Positions 32,835-56,735 of a stretch of 64,000 nt of DNA are shown here, piece by piece. Position 1 is the stretch's first letter; every line of letters starts with the position of its first letter. Made by a program: the position numbers and the translations under genes. The notes below the pieces were generated by a model that was given only the letters and a program-made list of their open reading frames with translations, did no database searches and had not been told where the DNA came from. The stretch spans positions 3,797 through 67,796 of the forward strand of contig JAKLIQ010000001.1 in the NCBI GenBank assembly GCA_022709525.1. The letters run 5' to 3'. Origin of the DNA: Candidatus Omnitrophota bacterium (GTDB lineage Bacteria > Omnitrophota > Omnitrophia > Omnitrophales > Aquincolibacteriaceae).

Positions 32835-33115
32835 CGCCTGTAACTTTGGACCAATTGCTTCCTGGCGAAAGCGGCGTGATCTTAGGATACGCCAAAGCGC
32901 AAGCCCTGCATCACCGGCTCAAAGAGCTCGGTCTTGTGGAAGGAACGAGGATCAAAGTAAAACGTTGCGCGCCGCTTGGCGATCCGATGGAGTTTGTGAT
33001 CCGCGGCTATCATCTGTCGATCCGGAAGGAAGACGCCCGTTGTGTTCTCATTCAAAAAGACGAAGATGCAGATTACAGCTGCGGCCGAAGGCACCGGCAT
33101 AGGAGTGGTTCATGA
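32822..33115 (+). CDS. feoA: ferrous iron transport protein A
   Basis: …GESGVILGY…HRLKELGLVEGTRIKVKRCAPLGDPMEF… is an SH3-like FeoA. Confidence 0.7.
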   Translation: MPTLTPVTLDQLLPGESGVILGYAKAQALHHRLKELGLVEGTRIKVKRCAPLGDPMEFVIRGYHLSIRKEDARCVLIQKDEDADYSCGRRHRHRSGS

Positions 33116-35094
33116 CCGCTTCAGGCATGAAGGAAATCGTGCTGGCGGGCAATCCCAACACCGGGAAGACCACGGTTTTTAATGCGCTCACGGGTTTGCG
33201 GCATACGACCGCCAATTATCCCGGTGTGACGGTCGAAAAACGCGCCGGTATGATGAAATTAAAGAACGGTGAAACCGTTTCCGTGATCGACCTTCCCGGC
33301 GCTTACAGCCTTTTGCCGCGTTCTCCCGACGAGAAAGTGGTGCATAACGTTCTTCTTGGCGCGCAGAAGGGAACGCCGCCTCCCGACCTCGTGGTGGTCG
33401 TCCTCGCGGCGAACAACCTTGAACGTAATCTTTATTTCGGGACGCAGGTCGCAAGCCTCGGCTTGAGGACCGTTTTTGCGGTCAATATGTGGGATGCGGC
33501 GCAGGAGCAGGGGCTTGGGATCGATCTCAACCGTCTTCAAAACATGACGGGCGTTCCATGTGTCCCGACCGTTGGGACGGATCCGAAAGGGATCGAAAAA
33601 CTTCAAGCCGCGATCGAAGAAGAGCTTGCGAAGCCCTCGGTCCGGGAAAACACCTTTGATCCTAAGATCTCGCCGGAAGTCCGTTACAAAACCATTGAAA
33701 ATATTGTTACTGCCATAGTCAAGCATCCCGGCGAAAAAAAGATCACCCTCTCAGAGAGGATCGACCGCGTCCTGACGCATCGCGTCTGGGGGCTCCTCGC
33801 ATTCCTGGGCGTCATGACGTTTGTTTTTCAATCGATCTTCAGCTGGGCCCAGGTCCCGATGGACTGGGTTTCACGGGGGATAGAATATCTTGCGTCATGG
33901 ACCCGGGCCATTCTGCCTGACGGAGCTCTTGAAAGCCTCGTGGTGGACGGCGTGATCGCGGGCGTGGGCAATGTGGTGGTGTTCCTGCCGCAGATCATGC
34001 TGCTTTTCTTTTTTATCGCTTTTTTTGAGGATACCGGTTATATGGCCCGCGCGGTTTTTGTGCTCGATAGGATCATGAAAATGGTAGGGCTGAACGGCAA
34101 GGCATTTTTACCGCTTCTCAGTTCTTTCGCATGCACCGTTCCGGGTGTTCTGGCGACGCGGACGATCGAGGATCGCAATGACCGGCTCGCGACCATCCTG
34201 GTTGCGCCGCTTATGAGTTGCAGCGCACGGCTTCCGATCTATACGTTGCTTGCGGCGGCGTTCGTACCCGCCAAGACTTTTTTCCATGTTTTTTCACTGC
34301 AGGGAGCGACGCTTCTTGCGATGTATCTTTTAAGCATCGGGACCGGCCTGGGGATGGCCGCGATTTTTCGCAAAACATTTTTAAAGGGAAACCAGGTCCC
34401 GTTCGTTTTTGAACTGCCGCCCTACCGGATGCCGCATTTCGGGACCATTCTTGCGGCGATGTGGGATCGCTCCAAAGAATTTATCGTAAGGGCCGGGAGC
34501 ATCATCTTTCTTCTTTCGATCGTGCTTTGGTTTTGCGTGAGTTATCCCAAAAATCCCGCCGCCGAAACCAGCTTTTCTTTACTAAAAAAACAAGCGGAGA
34601 CCTCTCTCGCGGGAGACGCATTAAAATCGCGCCTTTCGGAGATCGATCAAACGCAAAAAGATTTCCAGATCCGGACAAGTTTTGCCGGCTCCTTTGGCAG
34701 GGCGATCGAGCCCGCGATCCGTCCCTTGGGTTTCAACTGGGAGATCGGGATCGGGATCGTCGCTTCATTCGCCGCGCGCGAACTTTTGATCAGCACGCTC
34801 GCGATCGTCCATCACGCACAAAGCGAAGGGGAGGGCATGACGGCAAGTCTGATCGAAGCCCTGCAATCCGCCAAATCCCCGGAAACAGGCAAGCCGCTTT
34901 ATACGCCGCTCGTCGCGATCGCGCTTATGGTGTTTTATGTTTTTGCCTGCCAGTGTTTTTCGACCTATGCTGTCCTCAAGCGGGAAACCGGTTCCTGGGG
35001 CTGGACCTTTTTCACGGTCGCCTACATGACAGGCCTCGCCTGGGGCAGCGCTTTTATCGTTTATCAGGGCGGACAACTATTGGGTTTCAAGTAA
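33112..35094 (+). CDS. feoB: ferrous iron transport protein B
   Basis: G-domain IVLAGNPNTGKTTVFNALTG followed by a large polytopic permease; 660 aa. Confidence 0.9.
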   Translation: MTASGMKEIVLAGNPNTGKTTVFNALTGLRHTTANYPGVTVEKRAGMMKLKNGETVSVIDLPGAYSLLPRSPDEKVVHNVLLGAQKGTPPPDLVVVVLAANNLERNLYFGTQVASLGLRTVFAVNMWDAAQEQGLGIDLNRLQNMTGVPCVPTVGTDPKGIEKLQAAIEEELAKPSVRENTFDPKISPEVRYKTIENIVTAIVKHPGEKKITLSERIDRVLTHRVWGLLAFLGVMTFVFQSIFSWAQVPMDWVSRGIEYLASWTRAILPDGALESLVVDGVIAGVGNVVVFLPQIMLLFFFIAFFEDTGYMARAVFVLDRIMKMVGLNGKAFLPLLSSFACTVPGVLATRTIEDRNDRLATILVAPLMSCSARLPIYTLLAAAFVPAKTFFHVFSLQGATLLAMYLLSIGTGLGMAAIFRKTFLKGNQVPFVFELPPYRMPHFGTILAAMWDRSKEFIVRAGSIIFLLSIVLWFCVSYPKNPAAETSFSLLKKQAETSLAGDALKSRLSEIDQTQKDFQIRTSFAGSFGRAIEPAIRPLGFNWEIGIGIVASFAARELLISTLAIVHHAQSEGEGMTASLIEALQSAKSPETGKPLYTPLVAIALMVFYVFACQCFSTYAVLKRETGSWGWTFFTVAYMTGLAWGSAFIVYQGGQLLGFK

Positions 35095-35138: not shown

Positions 35139-35315
35139 ATGGATCAGAATGAGATCATCGCTTTAAGCATCGTCGCCCTCGCCGCGCTTCTGGCGCTCCG
35201 GCATTTCATCTCCACAAAGGGCGGGGGAGGGTGCTGCGGCTCGGATTGCCTGCCGGGAAGCAAGCTGAAATCCGAAAAAAAAGATCAGAAAGAAACGAAA
35301 GAAATTAAAAAATGA
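35139..35315 (+). CDS. FeoB-associated Cys-rich small membrane protein (58 aa; not in the supplied ORF track)
   Basis: MDQNEIIALSIVALAALLALRHFISTKGGGGCCGSDCLPGSKLKSEKKDQKETKEIKK: one TM plus a CCGxxC motif. The stop overlaps the next gene's ATG (ATGA). Confidence 0.6.
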   Translation: MDQNEIIALSIVALAALLALRHFISTKGGGGCCGSDCLPGSKLKSEKKDQKETKEIKK

Positions 35316-36247: not shown

Positions 36248-36955
36248 TCAAAGGGTAAGCGTTCCGCCTTCGCGCAACACCGCGCAATTTTGGGGGTAGA
36301 TTTTTTTGAATAGGCTAGCCGCGACTGCGCCGGTGCAGTGGAGGGGGAGGACCTTTCGGACGCCGAGGGTTTGAAGTTCCGTGATGATCTTTTTGTTTTC
36401 TTCGTGCGTATTATCCTTCATGTGGAATCCGCCGCAAACTGCGTAGATCTTCTTTCCGAATATCTTGACGGCCCGCCTGACAATACGAACGATCCCCGGA
36501 TGGGCGCAGCCCGTGATCACTGAAAAGCCATTCCTTGATTTCACGACCAATGCTTGCTCATAAAGGATACCGCGTCCCGTGCCCGCCCGCATTTGGCCAA
36601 GAGAATAAATGTTGGGAGCGATCCGCCGGGTTTTACGGACTTCAACGGGGATACCACCATTCGCGCGAATCAAGCGCTTAAGTTCTTTTCCGGTCTTTGC
36701 GCAGATATAAACCTTTGTTCCCAGTTGCGTCCGGAGGAATCCTTCGAGCCCCGCGGTGTGGTCCCAATCCTCATGCGAGATCGCCACATGCTTGACACGC
36801 GAAAGGTCGATCTTGAAACGGCGGATATTTTTCCAGAAGATGTCCGAGCGGCCGAAGGTATCGAATAAAACATTGCCGACTAGAAAAGAAACGCCCCACC
36901 GGAGCGCTTTCCGCTCCCGCTTAGTCGATCCTTCCGCGATGAGCCGCAGTTTCAT
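36248..36955 (-). CDS. MBL-fold metallo-hydrolase
   Basis: HxHxDH motif ISHEDWDHTAG; 235 aa. Confidence 0.7.
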   Translation of the reverse strand: MKLRLIAEGSTKRERKALRWGVSFLVGNVLFDTFGRSDIFWKNIRRFKIDLSRVKHVAISHEDWDHTAGLEGFLRTQLGTKVYICAKTGKELKRLIRANGGIPVEVRKTRRIAPNIYSLGQMRAGTGRGILYEQALVVKSRNGFSVITGCAHPGIVRIVRRAVKIFGKKIYAVCGGFHMKDNTHEENKKIITELQTLGVRKVLPLHCTGAVAASLFKKIYPQNCAVLREGGTLTL

Positions 36956-37311
36956 TTTCCTTCTATCGCTTCGGCGGCTTTTTCAACGCAGCCAACGCAT
37001 GGCAGCTTTTTCAGAGCTTTGATCTCCCGGCATTTCAGGGATCCCGCCGCGGAGCGCAGGTATTCCATGCTTTCCGGAGCCTGCCGGGGGAGGTGGTGTT
37101 CCAAAATACATTTGGCCGCGTAGAATGCGCCGCAGTATCCCCCGGGCGCCATGCCGCCGCCGCAGGCAGAAAGAATAGCGGCCCTTTTTTCATCCAAAGG
37201 GAACCGCTCCCGGAATGTCTCGGCGACGGATCGGGCGCAATTGAGCCGGGGCCGCCCGTTTTTCCCAAGAAAATAATCCTTGGCTTTCTCTTTCATAAAA
37301 ATCAGTGGCAA
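36952..37311 (-). CDS. C_GCAxxG_C_C family protein
   Basis: …LNCARSVAETF…ACGGGMAPGGYCGAF… is the characteristic Cys pattern. ATGA overlap downstream. Confidence 0.6.
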   Translation of the reverse strand: MPLIFMKEKAKDYFLGKNGRPRLNCARSVAETFRERFPLDEKRAAILSACGGGMAPGGYCGAFYAAKCILEHHLPRQAPESMEYLRSAAGSLKCREIKALKKLPCVGCVEKAAEAIEGK

Positions 37312-37667
37312 CCGTGCTCGGCGCAGGCGTTCGCGGCGGTCAATTCCGGCAGCCCGCCTTTCAGGAATTGCGCGATCAAGTGCTCAACGGTTCCCGGGAC
37401 GGCGCGATAAACCTTAATTCCGCCCTCGTTCAGCTTTTGAACGGCCCGCCCGCCCATTCCGCCGGTCACGACCACATCGATCTTTTTCCCGGCAAGAGCG
37501 CTCATGGGGTGGCACATGCCGTGAGAATGATGCTGGTTCGCATTATCGATGATCTCGGCCGTATTTTTGTCCGTGTCATAAACAGTAAAATAGGGTGCGC
37601 TTCCGAAATGTTCATAAACCTGCGCGGATTTTCCTTCTTTGGTTTGGGTGGGAATACAGATCCTCAT
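37302..37667 (-). CDS. NifB/NifX-family FeMo-cofactor-binding domain protein (Nitro_FeMo-Co)
   Basis: MRICIPT…VYEHFGSAPYFTVYD… …VVVTGGMGGRAVQKLNEGGIKVY…; 121 aa. Confidence 0.65.
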   Translation of the reverse strand: MRICIPTQTKEGKSAQVYEHFGSAPYFTVYDTDKNTAEIIDNANQHHSHGMCHPMSALAGKKIDVVVTGGMGGRAVQKLNEGGIKVYRAVPGTVEHLIAQFLKGGLPELTAANACAEHGCH

Positions 37668-38263
37668 AAGCTCCTCCTTTGGGCTATAAAAATTTGGTGA
37701 CAGGTATGACGGTAACTTTTTACGATGAAACCGTTTTTCAAAAGGTATTTTCTTAATGTTGAAAGCGGTATGGCGGGTGTTGCATGTTTTTTGCCCTCGC
37801 TTCGATGGACAAGATCCATGATCTTCATGCCTTTTCTATTAAGGTCTGCGAGCGTCAGGATTTTCCGCGCTACTCGCATCATTTCCCGGAGGCAGCGAAG
37901 AGGATTTTTGGCGTGATGAAAAAAATCCACCGAGATCACATGATCGAAGCTCCGGGTCCGGAAGGGGAGTTTTTCGGCGTTCATTTTGCGTAGCAATATG
38001 CGGCGGCCCGCTTTTGCTGTTGAAAGATGGATCTTCGCGGTAGCGAGCGCTTCCGGATCAAGATCAATGGAAATCGCACGGAGGTTCTTTTTCGCGAGGA
38101 GTTTGGTTAAATGTCCCTTACCGGTCCCGATCTCAAGGACCGTTCCATTCCGAATGCCGGATTTTTCCAAGATGTATTTTCGCGAAGCGGGGAGATCATA
38201 GCCATACCGTTTGAATTGGCCGATGCGCGTTGCCAGTTTTGACAGCACCGCTTTTTTCGTCAT
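37664..38263 (-). CDS. class I SAM-dependent methyltransferase
   Basis: Start MTKKAVL at 38263 overlaps the upstream stop (ATGA). Motif I VLEIGTGKGHLT. Confidence 0.7.
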   Translation of the reverse strand: MTKKAVLSKLATRIGQFKRYGYDLPASRKYILEKSGIRNGTVLEIGTGKGHLTKLLAKKNLRAISIDLDPEALATAKIHLSTAKAGRRILLRKMNAEKLPFRTRSFDHVISVDFFHHAKNPLRCLREMMRVARKILTLADLNRKGMKIMDLVHRSEGKKHATPAIPLSTLRKYLLKNGFIVKSYRHTCHQIFIAQRRSL

Positions 38264-38598
38264 GGTCTCCCTCTTTGTCTTTCGCGGCTTTGCCCCCGCG
38301 CCATGCCGGCCATGCGGACCGTTCCGCCATCGATCTTGAGCGCTTTTGCGTTCACGAGACAATCCGAGATTTTTTTGCGGGCTGATTCAATAATATTCCC
38401 AAAAGTTTGACGTGAAATGTTCATCTTTTTAGCAGCATCTTCTTGGTAAAGTCCTTCGAGGTCGGCAAGCCGGACAGCTTCAAATTCATCCACCGTAAGC
38501 AAGACCTCCTCAAGGGCGTCAACGGGAAGTCCTCTTGGTTTGAAATAATTCGTATCGGGTTTGCATCGCACGCGGCGGCACTTAAATGGCCTGGGCAT
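38260..38598 (-). CDS. DUF134 (UPF0251) HTH DNA-binding protein, paralog 1
   Basis: MPRPFKCRRVRCKPDTNYFKPRGLP…LTVDEFEAVRLADLEGLYQEDAAKKMNISRQTFGNIIESARKKISDCLVNAKALKIDGG is the canonical DUF134 pattern. Confidence 0.65.
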   Translation of the reverse strand: MPRPFKCRRVRCKPDTNYFKPRGLPVDALEEVLLTVDEFEAVRLADLEGLYQEDAAKKMNISRQTFGNIIESARKKISDCLVNAKALKIDGGTVRMAGMARGQSRERQRGRP

Positions 38599-38613
38599 AA
38601 AGTCCTTCTGGAG

Positions 38614-38633
38614 TTATTAGCATATGCCAATAA
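38614..38633. promoter_or_regulatory. candidate operator: 20-bp near-perfect palindrome TTATTAGCATATGCCAATAA immediately upstream of DUF134 paralog 1
   Basis: 7-6-7 palindrome centred on CATATG, 16 nt upstream of the DUF134 start codon. Closely related to the palindrome at 40923. Confidence 0.55.
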
Positions 38634-38863
38634 TATCGGCAAGAAATCCTTTTGTCAAGACATGGAGGCATTGGAAAAGCAGCGCGGAGCGGACATTTGG
38701 TTTGCGGACGCCGAAGGGAAACAGCGTTTCCTCGACAACCTGCTTCTTGAGGCGGGCCAGGCGCGCCGGGTCTGACCCCGGTCAAAGCATGACCCGGCTT
38801 GCTTCATGGAGAGGCGAATTTGAAACCATTGACAAATAGGAATGATTACTATATAGTAACTCC

Positions 38864-39301
38864 ATGAAAATCGAGCATGAAGCACTAAAAAGAATGTTTT
38901 ACGATAAATGCGCCGAGAATGGACTTAAGATCACTCCGCAGCGCTCGCTTATTTTCGATGAACTCTCCAAAGCAACGGATCACCCAACAGCTGACGCCAT
39001 CTACCAGCGTGTCCGCAAAAGATTATCGAATATTTCATTTGATACCGTTTACCGGACCCTCTTGTCATTTACCGAAATAGGTATCATTAGCCTCGTGGAA
39101 GGAACGGGCGAGCAGAAGCGTTTTGAGCCTAACCTGCATCGGCATCATCATTTTAGATGCATCAAATGCTACACCATTTTTGATTTCGAACACGATGCCT
39201 ATGACAATATTGCCGTTCCTGACGCGGTGCAGAAGCAGGGGGTCGTTATTAATAAGAGGGTCGTGCTGGAAGGCATTTGTTCAAAATGTAAGGGCAAATA
39301 A
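38864..39301 (+). CDS. Fur-family regulator, probably Zur (zinc uptake regulator)
   Basis: …HRHHHFRCIKCYTIFDFEH… and C-terminal CSKC. Low-GC gene. Perfect palindrome TTACTATATAGTAA 5 bp upstream of the ATG. Neighbours are zinc-related. Confidence 0.65.
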   Translation: MKIEHEALKRMFYDKCAENGLKITPQRSLIFDELSKATDHPTADAIYQRVRKRLSNISFDTVYRTLLSFTEIGIISLVEGTGEQKRFEPNLHRHHHFRCIKCYTIFDFEHDAYDNIAVPDAVQKQGVVINKRVVLEGICSKCKGK

Positions 39302-39321: not shown

Positions 39322-39336
39322 TCGTAATGATTACGA
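39322..39336. promoter_or_regulatory. Zur box (Firmicutes-type) TCGTAATGATTACGA
   Basis: Perfect 7-1-7 palindrome within gagTCGTAATGATTACGAttt, about 115 bp upstream of the PTPS-like gene. Matches the AAATCGTAATNATTACGATTT consensus. Confidence 0.6.
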
Positions 39337-39450: not shown

Positions 39451-39945
39451 ATGTCAAACGACAAGTACAGATCCATCGTAAAACTTGACTTCCAGTACGC
39501 GCACAGATTTATGAATTATCCCGGAGAGGCAAGCTATCTTCATGGACATTCGGGATATCTAACGATTGAAATTGAAGGGGAGTTAAATAAACATAATTAT
39601 GCCCACCCTGTAAAAGAGGCGCAAAAATTAGCATGGGCAGTAGCCGATAACTTCCACCATGGAACGATTTTTCAAGAAGGGGATCCCTTACTTGATTTAG
39701 TTCTGAAGGGATATGAGCAAACAGGAATGAAGGGCACAACAAATAGATTTGGGACACCTGCGAAAGCTCTCAACCACGAGCTGGTGAAATCGTTTCCTGA
39801 AAGCAGAGTCGCTGTCAGCAAAGGCCCATCTACCTGCGAATGGTTTTGTACGGTATTCTATGAACTATTGAAAGACAAGTTGAATATCAAGAAAGTAGAA
39901 TTCCGTTCTTCTTCGCTGAACTGCGCATCAAGAGAGTTTAATTAA
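39451..39945 (+). CDS. 6-pyruvoyl-tetrahydropterin synthase (PTPS/QueD) family protein, atypical (no Cys before HGH)
   Basis: …DFQYAHRFMNYPGEASYLHGHSGYLTIEIEGE… aligns with the QueD FEAAHRL…CGRLHGHSF… block, but has Ser/Glu where the catalytic Cys would be. Low GC; RBS AAAGGAG. Confidence 0.55.
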   Translation: MSNDKYRSIVKLDFQYAHRFMNYPGEASYLHGHSGYLTIEIEGELNKHNYAHPVKEAQKLAWAVADNFHHGTIFQEGDPLLDLVLKGYEQTGMKGTTNRFGTPAKALNHELVKSFPESRVAVSKGPSTCEWFCTVFYELLKDKLNIKKVEFRSSSLNCASREFN

Positions 39946-40027: not shown

Positions 40028-40843
40028 TTACTTTCCGAACGCGACGTCGAGGAGCATCATGAGGGCGAAGCCGAGGATGGTCCCTGTGGTTGCGAGGTCG
40101 CCGTTCCCGTTCTGCTGGGATTCGGGGATCACTTCCTCGACTACAACGAAGATCATGGCCCCGGCGGCGAACGCGAGCGCGTAAGGGAGGAGCGGTTGGA
40201 CGATCATCACGACCGCGGCGCCGGTCACGGCTGCAACCGGCTCTACGACTCCTGAAAGCCAGCCGTACCAAAAACTTTTTCCCTTAGAAAACCCGTCCCG
40301 GTGGAGCGGAAAAGAGACCGCAAGCCCTTCCGGAAAGTTCTGGATCCCGATGCCGACCGCGAGAGCCAAGGCGGCCATCATGGATATGGAATGCGATGCC
40401 GCTCCTGTGGACCCAAAGGCGACCCCGACCGCGAGCCCTTCCGGGATATTGTGGATCGTCAGCGCCAGGACTAACAGCGTGCATTTCGGCCAGCCGGTTT
40501 TGATGCCCTCGATCTTTTCATCCGGCATCAGGGGGTGGAGATGGGGGAGGATCTTGTCGATCAAACGGAAAAAAGCGGCGCCGAGAAGAAAACCGATCAG
40601 AGCCGGAAGCCACGGGATCATACCTTGTTCTTCGGCCATTTCGATCGAAGGCGCCAGAAGCGACCAGAAGCTCGCCGCGATCATGATGCCGGCGGCGAAG
40701 CCAAGCATCACATCGAGGATCTTCTGGTTGATCCGCCTAAAAATAAAGATCGTGGCCGCGCCGAGCCCGGTCATGGCCCAGGTGAAAAGACCGGCCAGTA
40801 GCGCAGCGGTTACAGGATGAAGTCCCTTCAAGAGAGCTTCCAT
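40028..40843 (-). CDS. zupT: ZIP-family zinc transporter
   Basis: …HNIPEGLAVGVAF… and …IQNFPEGLAVS… ZIP signatures. Start MEALLKGL at 40843 within ORF 40028..40861. Confidence 0.8.
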   Translation of the reverse strand: MEALLKGLHPVTAALLAGLFTWAMTGLGAATIFIFRRINQKILDVMLGFAAGIMIAASFWSLLAPSIEMAEEQGMIPWLPALIGFLLGAAFFRLIDKILPHLHPLMPDEKIEGIKTGWPKCTLLVLALTIHNIPEGLAVGVAFGSTGAASHSISMMAALALAVGIGIQNFPEGLAVSFPLHRDGFSKGKSFWYGWLSGVVEPVAAVTGAAVVMIVQPLLPYALAFAAGAMIFVVVEEVIPESQQNGNGDLATTGTILGFALMMLLDVAFGK

Positions 40844-40922
40844 GCGGCCATTACATCGCAATCAACCCTGTTTGTCAACCTGGCCCCAGACAAAAACTTG
40901 ACAGAAAGAAACCAGGCTATTA

Positions 40923-40942
40923 TTATGCACATATGTGCATAA
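40923..40942. promoter_or_regulatory. candidate operator: perfect 20-bp palindrome TTATGCACATATGTGCATAA upstream of DUF134 paralog 2 / acr3
   Basis: 7-6-7 palindrome centred on CATATG, flanked by TATTAT, 13 bp before the RBS AAGGAG of the DUF134 gene. Sits between divergent zupT and DUF134-acr3. Confidence 0.6.
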
Positions 40943-40955
40943 TTAAGGAGCGGCC

Positions 40956-41258
40956 ATGAGGCCCAAGAAAATAAGGCAGATCGGCTGTAAGCCCGGGGAT
41001 CGGTGTTTTCGCCCCGTTCATGTCCCCCGTAAAGATGTCGTTGTGACCAGGATCACGCTTGATGAGCTTGAGGCGCTCCGCCTCTGCGATGGAATGCGTC
41101 TTGAACAGAATGCCGCTGCCAGGAAGATGAAGGTTCACCGTTCCACCGTCTCGCGCATCCTCACTGCCGCCCGCAAAAAAGTCGCGAATGCACTTGTCCA
41201 CCACCACGGCATCAAGATTGAAGGTGGGCGCTGTAAGATGAAAGGAGAACGATCCTAA
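40956..41258 (+). CDS. DUF134 (UPF0251) HTH DNA-binding protein, paralog 2
   Basis: [91 protein letters not shown]. Stop/start overlap with acr3 (TAATG). Confidence 0.65.
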
Positions 41259-42307
41259 TGAAATGCTGTGATTCGCCTAAGCAACTCTCGTTCCTTGACC
41301 GGTTTCTGACGCTTTGGATCTTTCTCGGCATGGGCATCGGCGTTGCGGCGGGGTATTTCTATCCTCCGGTCGTTGGTTTTTGGAACAAGTTCCAAGTCGG
41401 GACGACCAATATCCCGATCGCGATCGGCCTTATCCTCATGATGTATCCGCCGCTCGCCAAAGTAAAATACGAAGAGCTCGGTGATGTGTTCAAGAACACC
41501 AAAGTCCTGCTTCTATCCCTCGTTCAGAATTGGGTGATCGGTCCCATCCTGATGTTCTTGTTGGCGATCACGTTCCTGCGCGGCTATCCGGAATATATGG
41601 TCGGGCTTATTCTGATCGGGCTTGCCCGGTGTATCGCCATGGTCATCGTCTGGAACGACCTCGCGGAAGGGGACACGGAATATTGCGCGGGGCTTGTGGC
41701 GTTCAATTCGATCTTCCAGGTGCTTTTCTTCTCCCTTTACGCTTGGATTTTCATTACGGTCCTGCCGCGCTGGTTCGGCCTGCAGGGCGCGGTGGTGGAC
41801 ATTACGATCAGCCAGATCGCAAAAAGCGTTTTCATTTATCTCGGGATCCCGTTTATTGCGGGGATGCTTACGCGGTTCGCTTTGCTTAAGATCAAAGATA
41901 AAAATTGGTACGAGACCCGGTTCATTCCGGCGATCAGCCCTATCACGCTCATCGCTTTACTCTTTACAATCGTCGTCATGTTCTCCCTGAAGGGAGACGC
42001 CATCGTCAAGATTCCGATGGACGTCATGCGGATTGCGGTTCCGCTTCTGATCTATTTTGTCGTGATGTTCCTCATCTCCTTTTTTATGAGCAAAAAGATC
42101 GGTGCTCCTTACGGTCAATCTGCCACGCTGTCCTTTACCGCCGCAAGCAACAATTTTGAGCTCGCTATTGCGGTGGCCGTGGCCGTCTTCGGCATCCATT
42201 CCGGCGTCGCCTTCGCGGCCGTGATCGGCCCGCTTGTCGAAGTCCCGGTCCTGATCGGGCTCGTTCACGTGGCCTTCTTCTTTAAAAAGAAATATTTCGC
42301 AAAATAA
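41258..42307 (+). CDS. acr3: ACR3-family arsenite efflux transporter
   Basis: …[21 protein letters not shown]…[22 protein letters not shown]… is typical of the ACR3/ArsB(ACR3) family; 10 TM. Confidence 0.8.
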
Positions 42308-42309
42308 AA

Positions 42310-43740
42310 ATGCTTTCTCCGAGGAGGAAAAGGGTTAGACTGATGACCATGATGATAAAGAAGATGGCAGCTCTTTTTTTAGTTTTTTGCCTCTTGCCGG
42401 GGCCGGCGGCTTTCGCGGAAGGACCTTCCGTGAAAGCCGGCGTTCCGGTGATGACTTTCCTTGATTGTTACAGGAAAGTGCTCGCGCATTATCCCGGGCT
42501 CCGGAAGCGCTATGAGCAGTTGGAGCAGGCCAAAGCCCAGCGCAATCTTGCGATCGCAGACCTTTTCCCCAAAGTCCGCGGCGTTTTCGGGATGGAAACT
42601 TCCGATGATCCCGTTTTTGTTTTCGGAAGCCTCCTCCGGCAAAAGTCCTTCACGGAACAGAATTTCGAGCTCAATTCGCTCAACACCCCTCGCCACCGGA
42701 CAAATTATCATTTCGGGATCGAAGGCGATATGCTGCTTTTTGATTCGTTCAATACGATCTCGAAGATCCGTTCCGCGCGCCGGCTTGTGAAGTCCGCGGA
42801 CCTTCAGGCGGATTTCACGGAAATGGAAGCCGGGATCCTGACGCTTGAAAGCTATCTCGGCATCCTGCTCGCGAGGGAGCTTTACAACATCGCGGTCGAG
42901 GTGAAGAACGCCTCCGATAAGGACCTCCAGCAAGCCAAGGACCTGAATGAAAAGGGTATGATCTTGGGCGCCGATTATTACGCCGCCAAGGTGACCGCGG
43001 CGGGCATTGAACGGGAAGTGAACCGCCTCCAGGGCCTTCTTAAAAGTTCCCGGATGCTCATGAATATCCTGATGGGGGAGGATCCGGAACTTGTTTGGGA
43101 TGCCGTCGGAAGTTTTCCGGACACGGTTCAGGAAAAGGGAGCGCTTCAAGAGTGGCTCGCGCAGGCCTATCAAAAACGATCGGACCTCGCCGCTATCGGC
43201 CAAATGCTCGACGCGCAGCGCATCGAATCGCTCCGCCAGAAGACTTCTTTCCTTCCAAAATTCTACGGCTTCGGCAGTTTGGACGAGAACAGCCACGACT
43301 GGCATACCGGCGGGCAGAGCTTTTCGCTCGGCGTCAAAGGGACCATGGATTTTTTTGACCCCAGTTATCCCGGCCGCGTCAAAGGGGCTAACGCGCAATA
43401 TAGGGAACTCAAGGCCGAACGCGACGCCCTGCGCGACGAGATCGTGAAGGGGCTCATTCAGGAGATGACCCGCTATGAGACCGTGGCCGCCGATACGCCT
43501 GTGATGAAGTCGGCTTACGCGGACGCGAAACAGGCCTCGGAACTGACGGCCAAACTATATCAGGAAGGGCGGAAATCGATCGCCGATCTTCTGGAGATGC
43601 GTCGCGGTTATTTTGAAACGGCAGCGGGGTTTCAAAGCCTTCTCCTGGCGCTTGAACTCGAGTACGCGAAACTTCTTTTCCTTTCCGGCCAGTTGAACGA
43701 AGACGGCCTTCATCAGGTTAACCAAAGGCTTCAAGCATAA
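42310..43740 (+). CDS. TolC-like outer-membrane efflux protein (OEP family)
   Basis: Signal peptide, then two repeats of coiled-coil/beta-barrel OEP architecture; 476 aa. Confidence 0.7.
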   Translation: MLSPRRKRVRLMTMMIKKMAALFLVFCLLPGPAAFAEGPSVKAGVPVMTFLDCYRKVLAHYPGLRKRYEQLEQAKAQRNLAIADLFPKVRGVFGMETSDDPVFVFGSLLRQKSFTEQNFELNSLNTPRHRTNYHFGIEGDMLLFDSFNTISKIRSARRLVKSADLQADFTEMEAGILTLESYLGILLARELYNIAVEVKNASDKDLQQAKDLNEKGMILGADYYAAKVTAAGIEREVNRLQGLLKSSRMLMNILMGEDPELVWDAVGSFPDTVQEKGALQEWLAQAYQKRSDLAAIGQMLDAQRIESLRQKTSFLPKFYGFGSLDENSHDWHTGGQSFSLGVKGTMDFFDPSYPGRVKGANAQYRELKAERDALRDEIVKGLIQEMTRYETVAADTPVMKSAYADAKQASELTAKLYQEGRKSIADLLEMRRGYFETAAGFQSLLLALELEYAKLLFLSGQLNEDGLHQVNQRLQA

Positions 43741-43755: not shown

Positions 43756-46700
43756 ATGACTTCGCATCACTCCGATATCATTAGCGGGATCGTCAGTTAT
43801 TTCGCGAAATCGAAGATCACGCCGCTCGTCATCGCCGTCTCGCTCATTATCGGCGTTTTCGCGGTCATCAATCTGCCGCGCGAAGAAGAACCGCAGATCT
43901 CGGTGCCGATGTTCGATATTTTTGTCTCCTACCCGGGCGCCGATTCCAAGGAGGTCGAACAGCGGATCGTAACTTTGGGCGAGCGTAAACTTTGGGAGAT
44001 CCCCGGCGTCGAATATATTTATTCGACGATCGAACCCGAAGGCGCGCTGATCATTGTCCGTTTCAAGGTCGGGGAAGACGTCGAAAAAAGCCTGATCAAG
44101 CTTTACACGAAGGTCTATTCCAATCTCGATTTTCTTCCCAAAGACGCGAGCCAGCCGCTGATCAAGATCCGTTCGATCGACGATGTTCCGATCCTCACGC
44201 TGACCTTTTATGGTAAGGATAAGAACGCCGTCGCATTGCGCAAAACGGTGGCCAACATCCAGAATATCGTGAACGCCATTCCCGATGTCTCGGATACAAG
44301 CATTACGGGAGGCCGCAAACGCCAGTTCCAGGTCTTTTTTGACGAGGAAAAACTCAAGGCCCGGCTCCTCAACCCGCTTGAAGTCGCCGAAATTATCCGT
44401 TCGGCCAATATCAAGCAGAACGCCGGCCATCTTGAAAGCGCGCCGGAGCTCGAATCGGTCGAGGCGAATTCCTTTTTTAAGACCAAGACCGATCTTGAAA
44501 ATCTTGTGGTGGGCGTGAGCGCGGGTTCGGTCGTCACGCTCAAAGACATCGCTAAAGTGATCGACGGGCCGGATGAGGAAGAGCGGATGACCGAGATCTT
44601 TTTCGGGCCGGCCTCCAAGACAAAAGACAAGGGCCCGTTCGAAGCCGTGACGCTTTCGATCTCAAAACGCAAAGGCGCGAACGCGGCGCATCTTTCGGAA
44701 GTGATCCTGCACACCATCCGGGAACTTCCCGAAGCGACCCTGCCGAAACATATCGAAATGACCGTGACGCGCGATTACGGCGAAACGGCGAAAGAGAAAT
44801 CCGACGAACTTCTTTTTCACATGGCGATCGCCGTATTCGGCGTAAGCGTCCTGATCGCGTGGGCCCTCGGGCTTCGTGAGTCCGGCGTTGTGGGGATCGC
44901 GATCCCGATGACCCTGGCGCTGACCCTCGCGACCTTTTATTTTTTAGGGTTCACGCTCAACCGCATCACGCTTTTCGCGCTGATCTTTTCGATCGGGATC
45001 CTGGTCGACGACCCGATCGTGGATGTAGAGAACATTGTTCGCCACCTGCGGCTCCCCGGCAACAAAGGAAAATCCATCCTTGATATCACGATCGAGGCCG
45101 TGAACGAGGTCCGCAGCCCCCTGATCCTCGCCACGCTGACCGTGATCGCGGCGATCCTGCCGATGGCTTTTGTGCGCGGGCTTATGGGCCCTTACATGCG
45201 GCCCATCCCGATCGGCGCGAGCGCGGCCATGATGTTCTCGATGTTCGTGGCGTTCGTCGCGACCCCGTGGGCGGCCTATCAGATCCTGGGACGGGCGTTC
45301 GCCCAGGGGAAACTCAAGGCGCATCATGAAGGCGAGAAGGAAGATTTTCTGACGCGTCTTTACCGTTCCTACATGAATCCGCTGATCTACAATAAAAAGG
45401 TCCGCAAAGCGTTCCTGATCGGCCTGGGGGCCCTGCTCGGGCTTTCGGTCCTGCTCGTGCCGTTGAAACTCGTGCGCGTCAAAATGCTTCCTTTCGATAA
45501 TAAAAATGAATTCCAGGTCATTTTGAACATGCCCGACGGCACGCCGGTCGAAAAAACCAAAAAAGCGATCACCGAGATCGCCGGTTACCTCGCCACGGTA
45601 CCTGAAGTCAAAGATATCGAACTCTATGCCGGTTCACCCGCGCCGTATAACTTCAACGGCCTTGTTCGCCATTATTTTCTTCGCACCAAGCCCTACCAGG
45701 CGGACCTTCAGGTGAATTTGACAGGAAAACATCACCGTAAACGCCAAAGTCACGATATCGCCAAAGCCGTGCGCCCGAAGATCCATGAGATCGTCAAAAA
45801 ATACGGCGGCCATGTCCAGGTCGCGGAAGTGCCGCCCGGGCCGCCGGTGCTTTCCACGCTCGTGCTTGAAATTTACGGCCCTTCGCGCGACGGGCAGGCG
45901 GAGCTTAATAAAGCCATTGAAGGGCTTCTTGCTTCAAGCGAAGGCGTCACTGATATCGACACCTACCTGCAGGCGCCGGAAAAACTCGCGCGGCTTCACA
46001 TCAATACCGAAAAGGCGTCTTTGAACGGTATTCCGGCTTCGCAGATCTCGGCCGCGATCACGGCCGCTTTGGATGGAAAAGTCGTGGACCTCGCGCACTT
46101 ATCGGAAGAATACGAACCGGTCGAGATCCTTTTAAGGCTTCCTAAAGAAAAACGCGCCGCACTTGATAATGTGCTTAATATGACGCTTTTATCGCGCTAC
46201 GGGAACCCGATCCCCGTCAGGGAGCTCGTCAATGTTGAAAAGGACACGAAGGACCCGGCGATCTATCACAAAAACCTGATGCGGGTTTCCTACGTGATCG
46301 CGGATGTGGCGGGACGCTATGAAAGCCCCGTTTACGCGATCCTGAAACTTAAAAAAGAGATCGCGAAGATGCCGGCGCCCCCCAACCATGAAGGGCAGAA
46401 AACGCTCGATCAGATCTTCACGCGCCAGCCGGCCACCACAGACCGCTGGACCGTCAAATGGGACGGGGAGTGGCAGATCACGTATGAAGTGTTCCGCGAC
46501 CTCGGGATCGCGTTCGCGTTCGTCCTGCTTCTTATTTATGCGCTCGTGGTCGGATGGTTCCAGTCGTTCAAAACGCCCTGGATCATCATGCTCCCGATCC
46601 CGCTTACCTTGATCGGCATCCTGCCGGCGCATTGGCTCGGCGGCGTGTTCTTCACGGCGACTTCCATGATCGGCATGATCGCGGGCGCGGGGATCGTCGT

Positions 46701-46974
46701 GCGGAATTCCATTATCCTTGTGGATTTTATCAAGCTCCGGCGCGCGGAAGGAATGCCGCTTGAAGAGGCCGTCGTCGACGCGGGCGCGAAGCGTTTCCGG
46801 CCGATGCTTTTGACAGCCGCCGCGGTAGTGGTCGGCGCTTCGGTGATCCTCTTTGACCCGATCTTTCAGGGCCTTGCCGTGGCGCTCATGGCGGGAGAGA
46901 TCGCTTCGACCATTCTTTCGCGAACGGCCGTTCCGGTGTTCTATTATATGATGGCTAAAAAAACGAGGGACTAG
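43756..46974 (+). CDS. RND-family efflux transporter permease (AcrB/CzcA-like)
   Basis: 1072 aa, 12 TM, with two large periplasmic loops. Conserved …FSIGILVDDPIV… and …GIVVRNSIILVDF…. Confidence 0.85.
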   Translation: MTSHHSDIISGIVSYFAKSKITPLVIAVSLIIGVFAVINLPREEEPQISVPMFDIFVSYPGADSKEVEQRIVTLGERKLWEIPGVEYIYSTIEPEGALIIVRFKVGEDVEKSLIKLYTKVYSNLDFLPKDASQPLIKIRSIDDVPILTLTFYGKDKNAVALRKTVANIQNIVNAIPDVSDTSITGGRKRQFQVFFDEEKLKARLLNPLEVAEIIRSANIKQNAGHLESAPELESVEANSFFKTKTDLENLVVGVSAGSVVTLKDIAKVIDGPDEEERMTEIFFGPASKTKDKGPFEAVTLSISKRKGANAAHLSEVILHTIRELPEATLPKHIEMTVTRDYGETAKEKSDELLFHMAIAVFGVSVLIAWALGLRESGVVGIAIPMTLALTLATFYFLGFTLNRITLFALIFSIGILVDDPIVDVENIVRHLRLPGNKGKSILDITIEAVNEVRSPLILATLTVIAAILPMAFVRGLMGPYMRPIPIGASAAMMFSMFVAFVATPWAAYQILGRAFAQGKLKAHHEGEKEDFLTRLYRSYMNPLIYNKKVRKAFLIGLGALLGLSVLLVPLKLVRVKMLPFDNKNEFQVILNMPDGTPVEKTKKAITEIAGYLATVPEVKDIELYAGSPAPYNFNGLVRHYFLRTKPYQADLQVNLTGKHHRKRQSHDIAKAVRPKIHEIVKKYGGHVQVAEVPPGPPVLSTLVLEIYGPSRDGQAELNKAIEGLLASSEGVTDIDTYLQAPEKLARLHINTEKASLNGIPASQISAAITAALDGKVVDLAHLSEEYEPVEILLRLPKEKRAALDNVLNMTLLSRYGNPIPVRELVNVEKDTKDPAIYHKNLMRVSYVIADVAGRYESPVYAILKLKKEIAKMPAPPNHEGQKTLDQIFTRQPATTDRWTVKWDGEWQITYEVFRDLGIAFAFVLLLIYALVVGWFQSFKTPWIIMLPIPLTLIGILPAHWLGGVFFTATSMIGMIAGAGIVVRNSIILVDFIKLRRAEGMPLEEAVVDAGAKRFRPMLLTAAAVVVGASVILFDPIFQGLAVALMAGEIASTILSRTAVPVFYYMMAKKTRD

Positions 46975-56662: not shown

Positions 56663-56735
56663 TGCCCCGTGGTGAAATTGGATATCACACTGCCCTTTGG
56701 AGGCAAGGTTTCTGGTTCAAGTCCAGACGGGGCAG
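56663..56735 (+). tRNA. tRNA-Gln (anticodon UUG), no encoded CCA
   Basis: Hand-folded cloverleaf. Acceptor TGCCCCG/CGGGGCA (U1:A72, G73, as in tRNA-Gln). D-arm GTGA-AATTGGATA-TCAC. Anticodon stem CTGCC/GGCAA with one C.A mismatch. Loop CTTTGGA. T-arm TCTGG-TTCAAGT-CCAGA. Confidence 0.65.

Follow-up and report, generated by a model that had tools for sequence, protein, structure and literature searches.

A DUF134 helix-turn-helix protein as a candidate autoregulated, arsenite-released repressor of ars operons in Omnitrophota

A 64,000-nucleotide (nt) stretch of contig JAKLIQ010000001.1 from a Candidatus Omnitrophota bacterium (assembly GCA_022709525.1), hereafter the window, carries two genes for proteins of the DUF134/UPF0251 family (PF02001). 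One of these proteins, named here DUF134-B, is encoded directly before an ACR3 arsenite efflux permease, the other one being DUF134-A. The analysis of both genes and of their relatives points to DUF134-B as an autoregulated repressor of an arsenic resistance (ars) operon, released from its operator by trivalent arsenic, As(III), a reading to which we assign a probability of about 0.7. Its parts differ in strength. Operator binding and autoregulation by DUF134 proteins appear very likely from the comparison of sequences; repression, judged from the position of the operator, is likely; and sensing of As(III) through the cysteines of DUF134-B is moderately probable. Comparison among relatives shows a cognate operator, its position over the promoter and the linkage to ars genes.

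The gene for DUF134-B (40956–41258, plus strand) encodes a one-domain helix-turn-helix (HTH) protein of 100 amino acids (aa) with the recognition helix VHRSTVSRI. It matches PF02001 with 74.0 bits (cut-off 27), covering profile positions 6–96 of 98, and a Shine-Dalgarno sequence, AAGGAG (40945–40950, plus strand), could be read 5 nt before its ATG. The TAA stop codon (41256–41258) runs into the ATG (41258–41260) of the ACR3 gene (41258–42307, plus strand; 349 aa; TIGR00832, PF01758) in a TAATG overlap. The product of the latter matches TIGR00832 over positions 1–327 of 327 with 462.6 bits, the equivalog cut-off being 282.8. The arrangement described in an earlier note on this DNA, with a DUF134 protein preceding acr3 through a TAATG overlap, was confirmed.

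Upstream of DUF134-B, TTATGCACATATGTGCATAA at 40923–40942 forms a perfect palindrome. The 20 bp recognized in the earlier note are part of a symmetry that reaches 22 bp in full, giving a predicted DUF134-B operator, ATTATGCACATATGTGCATAAT (40922–40943, no strand assigned), of the class termed GCAC, which with 38.2 bits in a position weight matrix (PWM) is the best site of the window. A second site, TTATTAGCATATGCCAATAA at 38614–38633, precedes the gene for DUF134-A and constitutes the predicted operator of this paralog, TTATTGGCATATGCTAATAA when read on the minus strand (38613–38634, no strand assigned; T[AG]GC class; PWM 10.5 bits). The note had claimed a related palindrome at the same distance from the start of the second paralog; the site is present, but its symmetry is 18/20 rather than perfect, and it lies 15 nt from the start codon as compared to 13 nt for DUF134-B. 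The pattern TTATN3CATATGN3ATAA is matched twice in 64 kb versus 0.07 matches expected from shuffled sequences, none of which gave two.

Promoter scanning identified two sigma-70-like promoters, each matching the consensus at 11 of 12 positions with a 17-nt spacer. The DUF134-B/acr3 promoter (40898–40926, plus strand) consists of TTGACA at 40898–40903 and TATTAT at 40921–40926, the latter overlapping the left arm of the operator. The DUF134-A promoter (38658–38630, minus strand) consists of TTGACA at 38653–38658 and TATTAT at 38630–38635, also overlapping an operator arm. The flank TATTATT that the note had found shared by both sites therefore has an explanation: TATTAT is present at both and is the −10 hexamer of each promoter, so that each palindrome extends over the −10 box and the transcription start expected there. 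Since the palindrome overlaps these elements of its own promoter, DUF134 would autoregulate, and most likely repress, the operon that it heads.

Identical proteins carry the annotation of a Candidatus Omnitrophota MAG (metagenome-assembled genome). One genome per GTDB species was scanned, yielding 80 loci for relatives of 43–83% identity, most of them labelled Omnitrophota and some bearing other MAG labels that are possibly unreliable; the comparison set amounted overall to about 150 related DNA stretches. Conservation of the palindrome upstream of DUF134 genes, on which the earlier note had made its proposal depend, was observed in 70 of 79 species-level loci, where TTATG[A/C]ACATATGT[T/G]CATAA was matched at 16 or more of 20 positions, mostly 10–20 bp before the DUF134 start. 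Columns carry 1–2 bits of information over a stretch of exactly 22 bp, falling to less than 0.5 bits on either side. Conservation confined to 22 bp among loci whose proteins are only 43–83% identical indicates a footprint and not residual similarity. The further sites that the note had proposed to look for proved scarce: in the window, the PWM matched the two DUF134 promoters and nothing else, and in 540 kb of loci it gave only 2 sites beyond DUF134 promoters. When metagenomes were scanned motif first, for the exact 20-mer, 60 of 81 sites were found ca. 5–120 bp, mostly 9–20 bp, before a DUF134 start, and 4 more lay at contig ends.

The link to the promoter is also maintained among relatives. 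A TTGACA-like −35 hexamer (at least 5/6) occurs at offset −30/−31 in 27, and at −25/−24 in 23, of 70 loci, so that the −10 box either immediately precedes the left palindrome arm or falls within it. At locus L001, the palindrome lies 89 nt from the start codon and is still fused to TTGACA-17-TATTAT; it therefore belongs to the promoter and not to the ribosome-binding region. This bears on the possibility that the palindrome acts in RNA, as a hairpin of the 5′ untranslated region affecting mRNA stability, translation or attenuation. The B-site hairpin would indeed have an energy of −14.7 kcal/mol (z = −2.9) if wholly transcribed. However, transcription is predicted to start inside the palindrome, the lowest-energy fold of the A-site RNA lacks the palindrome hairpin, and it is the sequence of arms and centre itself that is conserved, not pairing alone. 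In addition, no Rfam match was found at the palindromes, the only match in a gathering-threshold scan of the whole window being a tRNA at 56663–56735. A role as RNA hairpin is so improbable that we give it hardly any weight, and the start positions within the palindrome, the A-site fold and the promoter linkage at L001 led us to reject it.

The position of the operator is typical of steric repressors. DUF134 might instead bind the palindrome as an activator or a dual regulator, considering that the sign of regulation is deduced from this position and that HTH domains like sigma region 4 also serve activators, such as the LuxR/NarL family, which is among the fold neighbours of DUF134. Against this, an operator over the −10 box and the transcription start of a promoter with a normal 17-nt spacer occupies the classical place for steric repression, the layout is neither that of MerR-type regulators nor that of upstream activators, and promoters so close to consensus need no activation. 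Activation is thus very unlikely.

Which protein recognizes the palindrome was addressed by aligning each DUF134 protein with its own site and counting residue–base pairs per half-site. Four helix positions were found to match four half-site bases, and DUF134 therefore appears to have a readable code. Residue 62 goes with position 8, Arg62 with C (G on the other strand) in 156/156 half-sites and Gln62 with T (A on the other strand) in 8/8. Residue 66 goes with position 7, with Ser66 opposite A (133/136) and Gly66 opposite G (20/20), and residue 67 with position 5, with Arg67 opposite G (154/156) and Asn67 opposite T (8/8). At position 6, C accompanies His61, usually found with Ser63 (57/58), and A accompanies Pro63, found with Ser61 (76/80). 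For the intermediate helix SRS, sites are mixed (GAAC/GCAC), and the classes distinguished among DUF134 operators are GAAC, GCAC, GCAT, GAGC, GGGC and T[AG]GC. The helix SRPT pairs with GAAC whether the protein belongs to the Cys-bearing clade or is NifX-linked (L068, L080, L074), and helix class changes at least 12 times on a neighbour-joining tree built without the helix columns. This near-deterministic pairing argues that the cognate protein of the palindrome is DUF134 itself. Combined, the 70 of 79 loci and the helix covariation support the operator and the autoregulation proposed in the earlier note, which had regarded DUF134 proteins as autoregulating repressors acting at the palindrome; the repression part is deduced from position.

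Some features of the sites could nevertheless be read as those of another regulator, either a LexA-type SOS repressor (Cheo box, GAAC-N4-GTTC) or a SorC/DeoR protein, to which DUF134 would be merely adjacent. GAAC-class sites contain GAACATATGTTC, which we take to resemble the Gram-positive LexA box, the DeoR operator contains ACATATGTTCAA, and a few exact sites lie away from any DUF134 gene. By contrast, the cores in the window are GCAC and T[AG]GC, not GAAC, with TTATG and not CGAAC in the flanks; half-site variants follow the helix of the adjacent DUF134 nearly one to one; two variants stand beside two paralogs in a single intergenic region (L081); and the motif is essentially limited to DUF134 promoters. 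A foreign regulator is thus highly improbable. For LexA in particular, the likeness of GAAC-class operators to the Cheo box (CGAACN4GTTCG) stops at the shared GAACATATGTTC: DUF134 operators are flanked by TTATG, other classes exist, and sites at DUF134 promoters follow the DUF134 helix. The Cheo box of SOS genes was accordingly discarded on the grounds of core sequence, flanks, location and covariation.

The resemblance to DeoR of Bacillus subtilis is closer. DeoR binds its operator, ATTGAACAAAATTTCAAT...ACATATGTTCAA, as a dimer, with base-specific contacts in TTGAACA (PMC11229326). This SorC-family protein (PDB 7BHY, 8R7Y) shares with the SRPT class of DUF134 a near-identical helix, TGAAC half-sites and a centre-to-centre spacing of 9 bp. 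Unlike DUF134, DeoR is a tetramer of 313-aa subunits with a C-terminal sugar-phosphate effector domain and an operator in two halves, whereas DUF134 adds to the HTH no more than a basic arm at the N-terminus and a short tail, and its operators are single 20–22-bp palindromes with conserved TTAT/ATAA ends. No Pfam domain corresponding to the ca. 250-aa sugar-phosphate effector domain was found in the 100 aa of DUF134-B. Sigma-70 region 4 and the −35-binding domains of ECF sigma factors have the three-helix HTH fold of DUF134 as well, and ECF −35 elements also contain GAAC. However, a protein of about 100 aa that lacks region 2, such as DUF134, cannot be a sigma factor, and the DUF134 site is dyad-symmetric over the −10 box and the transcription start instead of being a −35 element.

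Structural comparisons pointed to the same relatives. No DUF134 structure was found in the PDB, the nearest sequence there being the DNA-binding domain of B. subtilis DeoR (7bhy_A, E 1.7e-5; helix ISRPTVSR). An AF2 model of DUF134-B has a mean predicted local distance difference test score (pLDDT) of 78, with values above 80 in a strand-helix-helix-helix-strand core (residues 30–90). In Foldseek, this model superimposed on the DeoR DNA-binding domain with a root-mean-square deviation of 0.7 Å over 40 residues (35% identity), and sigma-70 region 4 domains also matched, with target-normalised TM-scores of about 0.6–0.75; among the 50 matches listed there were such DeoR and sigma region 4 domains and no ArsR structure. 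Pfam and NCBIfam profile searches with DUF134-B gave no winged-helix match (HTH_5, PF01022; NF033788). Sigma region 4 matches in Pfam remained below threshold (19.3 versus 24.1 bits and 24.8 versus 25.7 bits), as did TIGR02937 (21.6 and 25.4 bits, cut-off 42.9). Against NF003257, the PRK04217 equivalog, the two DUF134 proteins score 60.6 and 60.5 bits, below the cut-off of 115 bits; both are related to this equivalog, yet outside it. Some DUF134 proteins away from ars genes (L067, L073, L077; P0127, P0133, and others) carry a C-terminal CxxC...CxxC zinc-ribbon extension (PF27353), so that different sensor modules may be combined with this HTH.

The connection to arsenic rests on operon content and on cysteines. 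Co-occurrence of DUF134 with acr3 in other genomes, which the earlier note had proposed to check, was observed in the form of complete ars operons headed by the same regulator, with the conserved order DUF134, ArsP, ArsM, ArsE, ArsF, ArsG, ACR3, ArsC. These assignments were obtained by clustering and annotating the downstream genes (ArsP, PF03773; ArsM, NF008823; ArsE, TIGR00412; ArsF, NF040494; ArsG, NF040495), among which CDF, DGC or USP genes are now and then inserted. Ars genes lie directly downstream for 64 of the 67 proteins with C11 and C93, the other 3 contigs ending too early, so that in 64/64 informative loci proteins with the Cys11/Cys17/Cys92-93 signature head ars operons. By contrast, 11 proteins have neither C-terminal cysteine; no ars linkage was seen for any of these, and 5 of them precede NifX-like genes. 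Among database homologs, 91 of 108 full-length B-type proteins showed both Cys motifs in a crude pattern search, and 116 of 119 A-type proteins showed neither.

DUF134-B of the window has cysteines C11, C17, C44 and C93. The Cys pairs that the note had read in this protein are conserved in relatives as regards C11, C17 and C93, but not as regards C44. Conservation of C11, C17 and C92/C93 is restricted to ars-linked members. Variants that have lost a single cysteine (the window protein, L002, L007 and L055) keep three of Cys11, Cys17, Cys92 and Cys93; in L055, which has Y at position 11 and also precedes ArsP, the other three are retained. Three remaining cysteines would suit three-coordinate binding of As(III) as in the ArsR types (PMC11868830).

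According to a paper of January 2025, ars operons are commonly under ArsR-family repressors, and all the As(III)-responsive regulators that it lists are ArsR proteins (PMC11868830). The proposal of the earlier note that DUF134-B stands in place of ArsR was supported, given that no ArsR-family gene was detected in the 64-kb window, or inside the 64 ars operons headed by Cys-bearing DUF134 proteins, by tblastn with two queries, a search of low sensitivity; a rival arsR gene, which the note had regarded as decisive, was thus not detected in these regions at that sensitivity. The queries were E. coli R773 ArsR and an ArsR-like protein from Omnitrophota. Since DUF134-B would control complete ars operons in relatives, it would therefore fill the role normally played by ArsR. 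The search did detect ArsR/SmtB-like genes near ars loci, but at three of them only (L002:3579-3896, L003:2158-2475 and L045:55-354), beside a large gene for a CoA-disulfide-reductase/rhodanese fusion. Their best matches, below cut-offs, are BigR/TsoR-like, in L002 and L003 they lie on the opposite strand, and they probably encode a sulfur or persulfide sensor and not an ars regulator. One further ArsR-like tblastn match lies in L073, a non-ars locus.

DUF134-B shares several traits with the ArsR/SmtB repressors R773 ArsR, AfArsR, CgArsR and ArArsR: it is encoded by the first gene of an ars operon, it has about 100 aa, and autoregulation is implied by a palindromic operator within its own promoter. 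Its three or four conserved cysteines lie in terminal regions that are flexible, as do the S3 As(III) sites of ArsR types 2 and 3 (PMC11868830). The As(III) sites of R773 ArsR and of Af-, Cg- and ArArsR evolved independently, are made of three cysteines and involve termini that go from disorder to order (PMC11868830, PMC11212059). In sharp contrast to the winged helix of ArsR/SmtB proteins (PF01022), DUF134-B has an HTH like that of sigma-70 region 4 and DeoR (PF02001), an unrelated fold; its operator sequence also differs, and arsenic binding by DUF134-B is here a proposal.

A mechanism can be outlined from these observations. DUF134 proteins would be small one-domain HTH transcription factors binding, presumably as dimers, to the 20–22-bp palindrome TTATGnnCATATGnnCATAA. 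A dimer of DUF134-B sitting on this site would repress the DUF134-B gene together with the coupled acr3 and possibly the TolC/RND genes farther downstream. Trivalent arsenic, as As(III) or possibly methylarsenite, would bind three of the subfamily-specific cysteines, of which Cys11 and Cys17 belong to the basic N-terminal arm, Cys92 and Cys93 to the C-terminal tail. By restraining arm and tail, arsenic would lower the affinity for DNA, so that DUF134-B would be released and the operon derepressed. DUF134-A, with its different helix and half-site (T[AG]GC), would separately control a methyltransferase/NifX-like operon in response to some signal.

Several points weigh against this explanation. 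That DUF134 binds this DNA, in which sense it regulates and what its effector is are all deduced. The promoters were predicted from a sigma-70 consensus whose validity in Omnitrophota is not established; the covariation counts lack phylogenetic independence, and proteins of 95 aa give trees of poor resolution; and about 14 of the 81 exact metagenome sites have no DUF134 nearby. The ArsR search covered 64 kb of this genome with two tblastn queries of limited sensitivity, and an arsR gene may lie elsewhere. Finally, the conserved cysteines number four and not three, and the termini that bear them have pLDDT below 50 (residues 8–13 and 93–100), so that proximity of the cysteines is not given by the model. 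The number of cysteines and these termini, which are not confidently modelled, would suit a protein that binds the operator and autoregulates while its cysteines build a structural Zn(Cys)4 site or act as a thiol redox switch, arsenic induction being absent or exerted through something else; the PF27353 zinc ribbons at the C-terminus of some non-ars DUF134 proteins go in the same direction. However, the Cys signature is found strictly with ars operons (64/64 versus 0/11), variants with one loss always keep three cysteines, a loss to which a Zn(Cys)4 site would be more sensitive, and As(III)-sensing ArsR types as a rule have their three-Cys sites in flexible termini (PMC11868830, PMC11212059). 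A zinc or redox function in place of arsenic sensing is thus unlikely, though clearly less so than the other alternatives.

In the window, the ars unit is short. A TolC-like gene (42310–43740) and a gene for a 1072-aa RND pump (43756–46974) follow 3′ of ACR3 with gaps of few bases, and no terminator-like site was predicted between ACR3 and these genes; the order ACR3...TolC is also present in L001. The ars unit may thus be co-transcribed with the RND efflux system. ArsP, ArsM, ArsE, ArsF, ArsG and ArsC were not found within the 64-kb window, whose operon, DUF134 and ACR3 followed by the TolC-like and RND genes, is a reduced version of the ars operon of relatives.

DUF134-A (38260–38598, minus strand; 112 aa) carries the helix ISRQTFGNI, lacks C17 and the C-terminal cysteines, and matches PF02001 with 79.2 bits (cut-off 27; profile positions 6–96 of 98). 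Its stop codon overlaps the start of a methyltransferase gene (ATGA, 38260–38263), and therefore both paralogs are translationally coupled to their first target gene. The operon downstream, identified by Pfam matches (36248–38263, minus strand), comprises genes for this methyltransferase (37664–38263), a NifX-like protein (37302–37667), a C_GCAxxG_C_C protein (36952–37311) and an MBL-fold protein (36248–36955), all on the minus strand. The order DUF134-A, methyltransferase, NifX-like is repeated in L081 and L083. Orthologs with the helix SRQTFGN have perfect palindromes of the form TTATT[A/G]GCATATGC[T/C]AATAA, namely TTATTAGCATATGCTAATAA in L081 and TTATTGGCATATGCCAATAA in L083 and L085. At L081:3437-4339, a DUF134-B ars operon and a DUF134-A methyltransferase/NifX-like operon diverge from one 260-bp region, each beside its own palindrome variant, an arrangement which hints at a possible functional tie between the DUF134-A operon and metalloid handling.

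As for exact 20-mers apart from DUF134 genes, six are contained in a palindromic repeat of greater length (34 bp), GGTCAGTTTATGAACATATGTTCATAAACTGACC (L090:1285, L091:1956, L100:7216, L151:1218 and 10929, L157:3903), which has no DUF134 gene near it and occurs twice on one contig; this is a different repeated element from the DUF134 operator. Others lie 6–31 bp upstream of genes with no adjacent DUF134, encoding NifX-like proteins (L103:1287, L137:6797, L144:4083) or an Mrp/MinD-type ATPase (L104:2533). NifX-like and Mrp-type ATPase genes are classical DUF134 neighbours, and these sites may be trans targets of a DUF134 protein encoded elsewhere.

Full-text literature searches on DUF134, UPF0251, PF02001 and COG1342 returned incidental mentions only; no functional study, arsenic link or operator was found. 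If the explanation holds, a metalloid-responsive operon repressor has arisen on a scaffold unrelated to ArsR, a new case of convergent evolution, and DUF134/UPF0251, among the oldest domains of unknown function, gains a function, a cognate operator and a testable residue-to-base code. We consider it slightly better than an even chance that the family as a whole comprises widespread, minimal, autoregulated HTH repressors, related to DeoR and sigma region 4, with a readable code, and that its Cys-bearing clade would provide non-ArsR sensors of As(III) or organoarsenicals, controlling ars operons in dozens of uncultivated species at the least, mostly Omnitrophota. Apparently regulator-less ars operons in Omnitrophota and related MAGs could then be annotated, a sensor of about 100 aa with a defined 22-bp operator could serve arsenic biosensors as a new chassis, and the pair of paralogs with insulated operator specificities would be usable in synthetic circuits.

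Two further groups of genes were noticed in the window. Upstream of a PTPS-like gene (39451–39945) there is a perfect 15-bp palindrome, TCGTAATGATTACGA, at 39322–39336, and a copy with 3 mismatches lies at 38837–38851, inside the promoter of the adjacent Fur-family gene (38864–39301). By the Bacillus Zur consensus, we take TCGTAATGATTACGA to be Zur-box-like. A ZIP transporter gene (40028–40861, minus strand) adjoins the PTPS-like and Fur-family genes, and together with the palindromes the three genes look like a Zur-type zinc regulon island. Directly after FeoB (33112–35094), a 58-aa open reading frame with a GGGGCCGSDC motif (35139–35315) may encode a putative FeoB-associated Cys-rich peptide.

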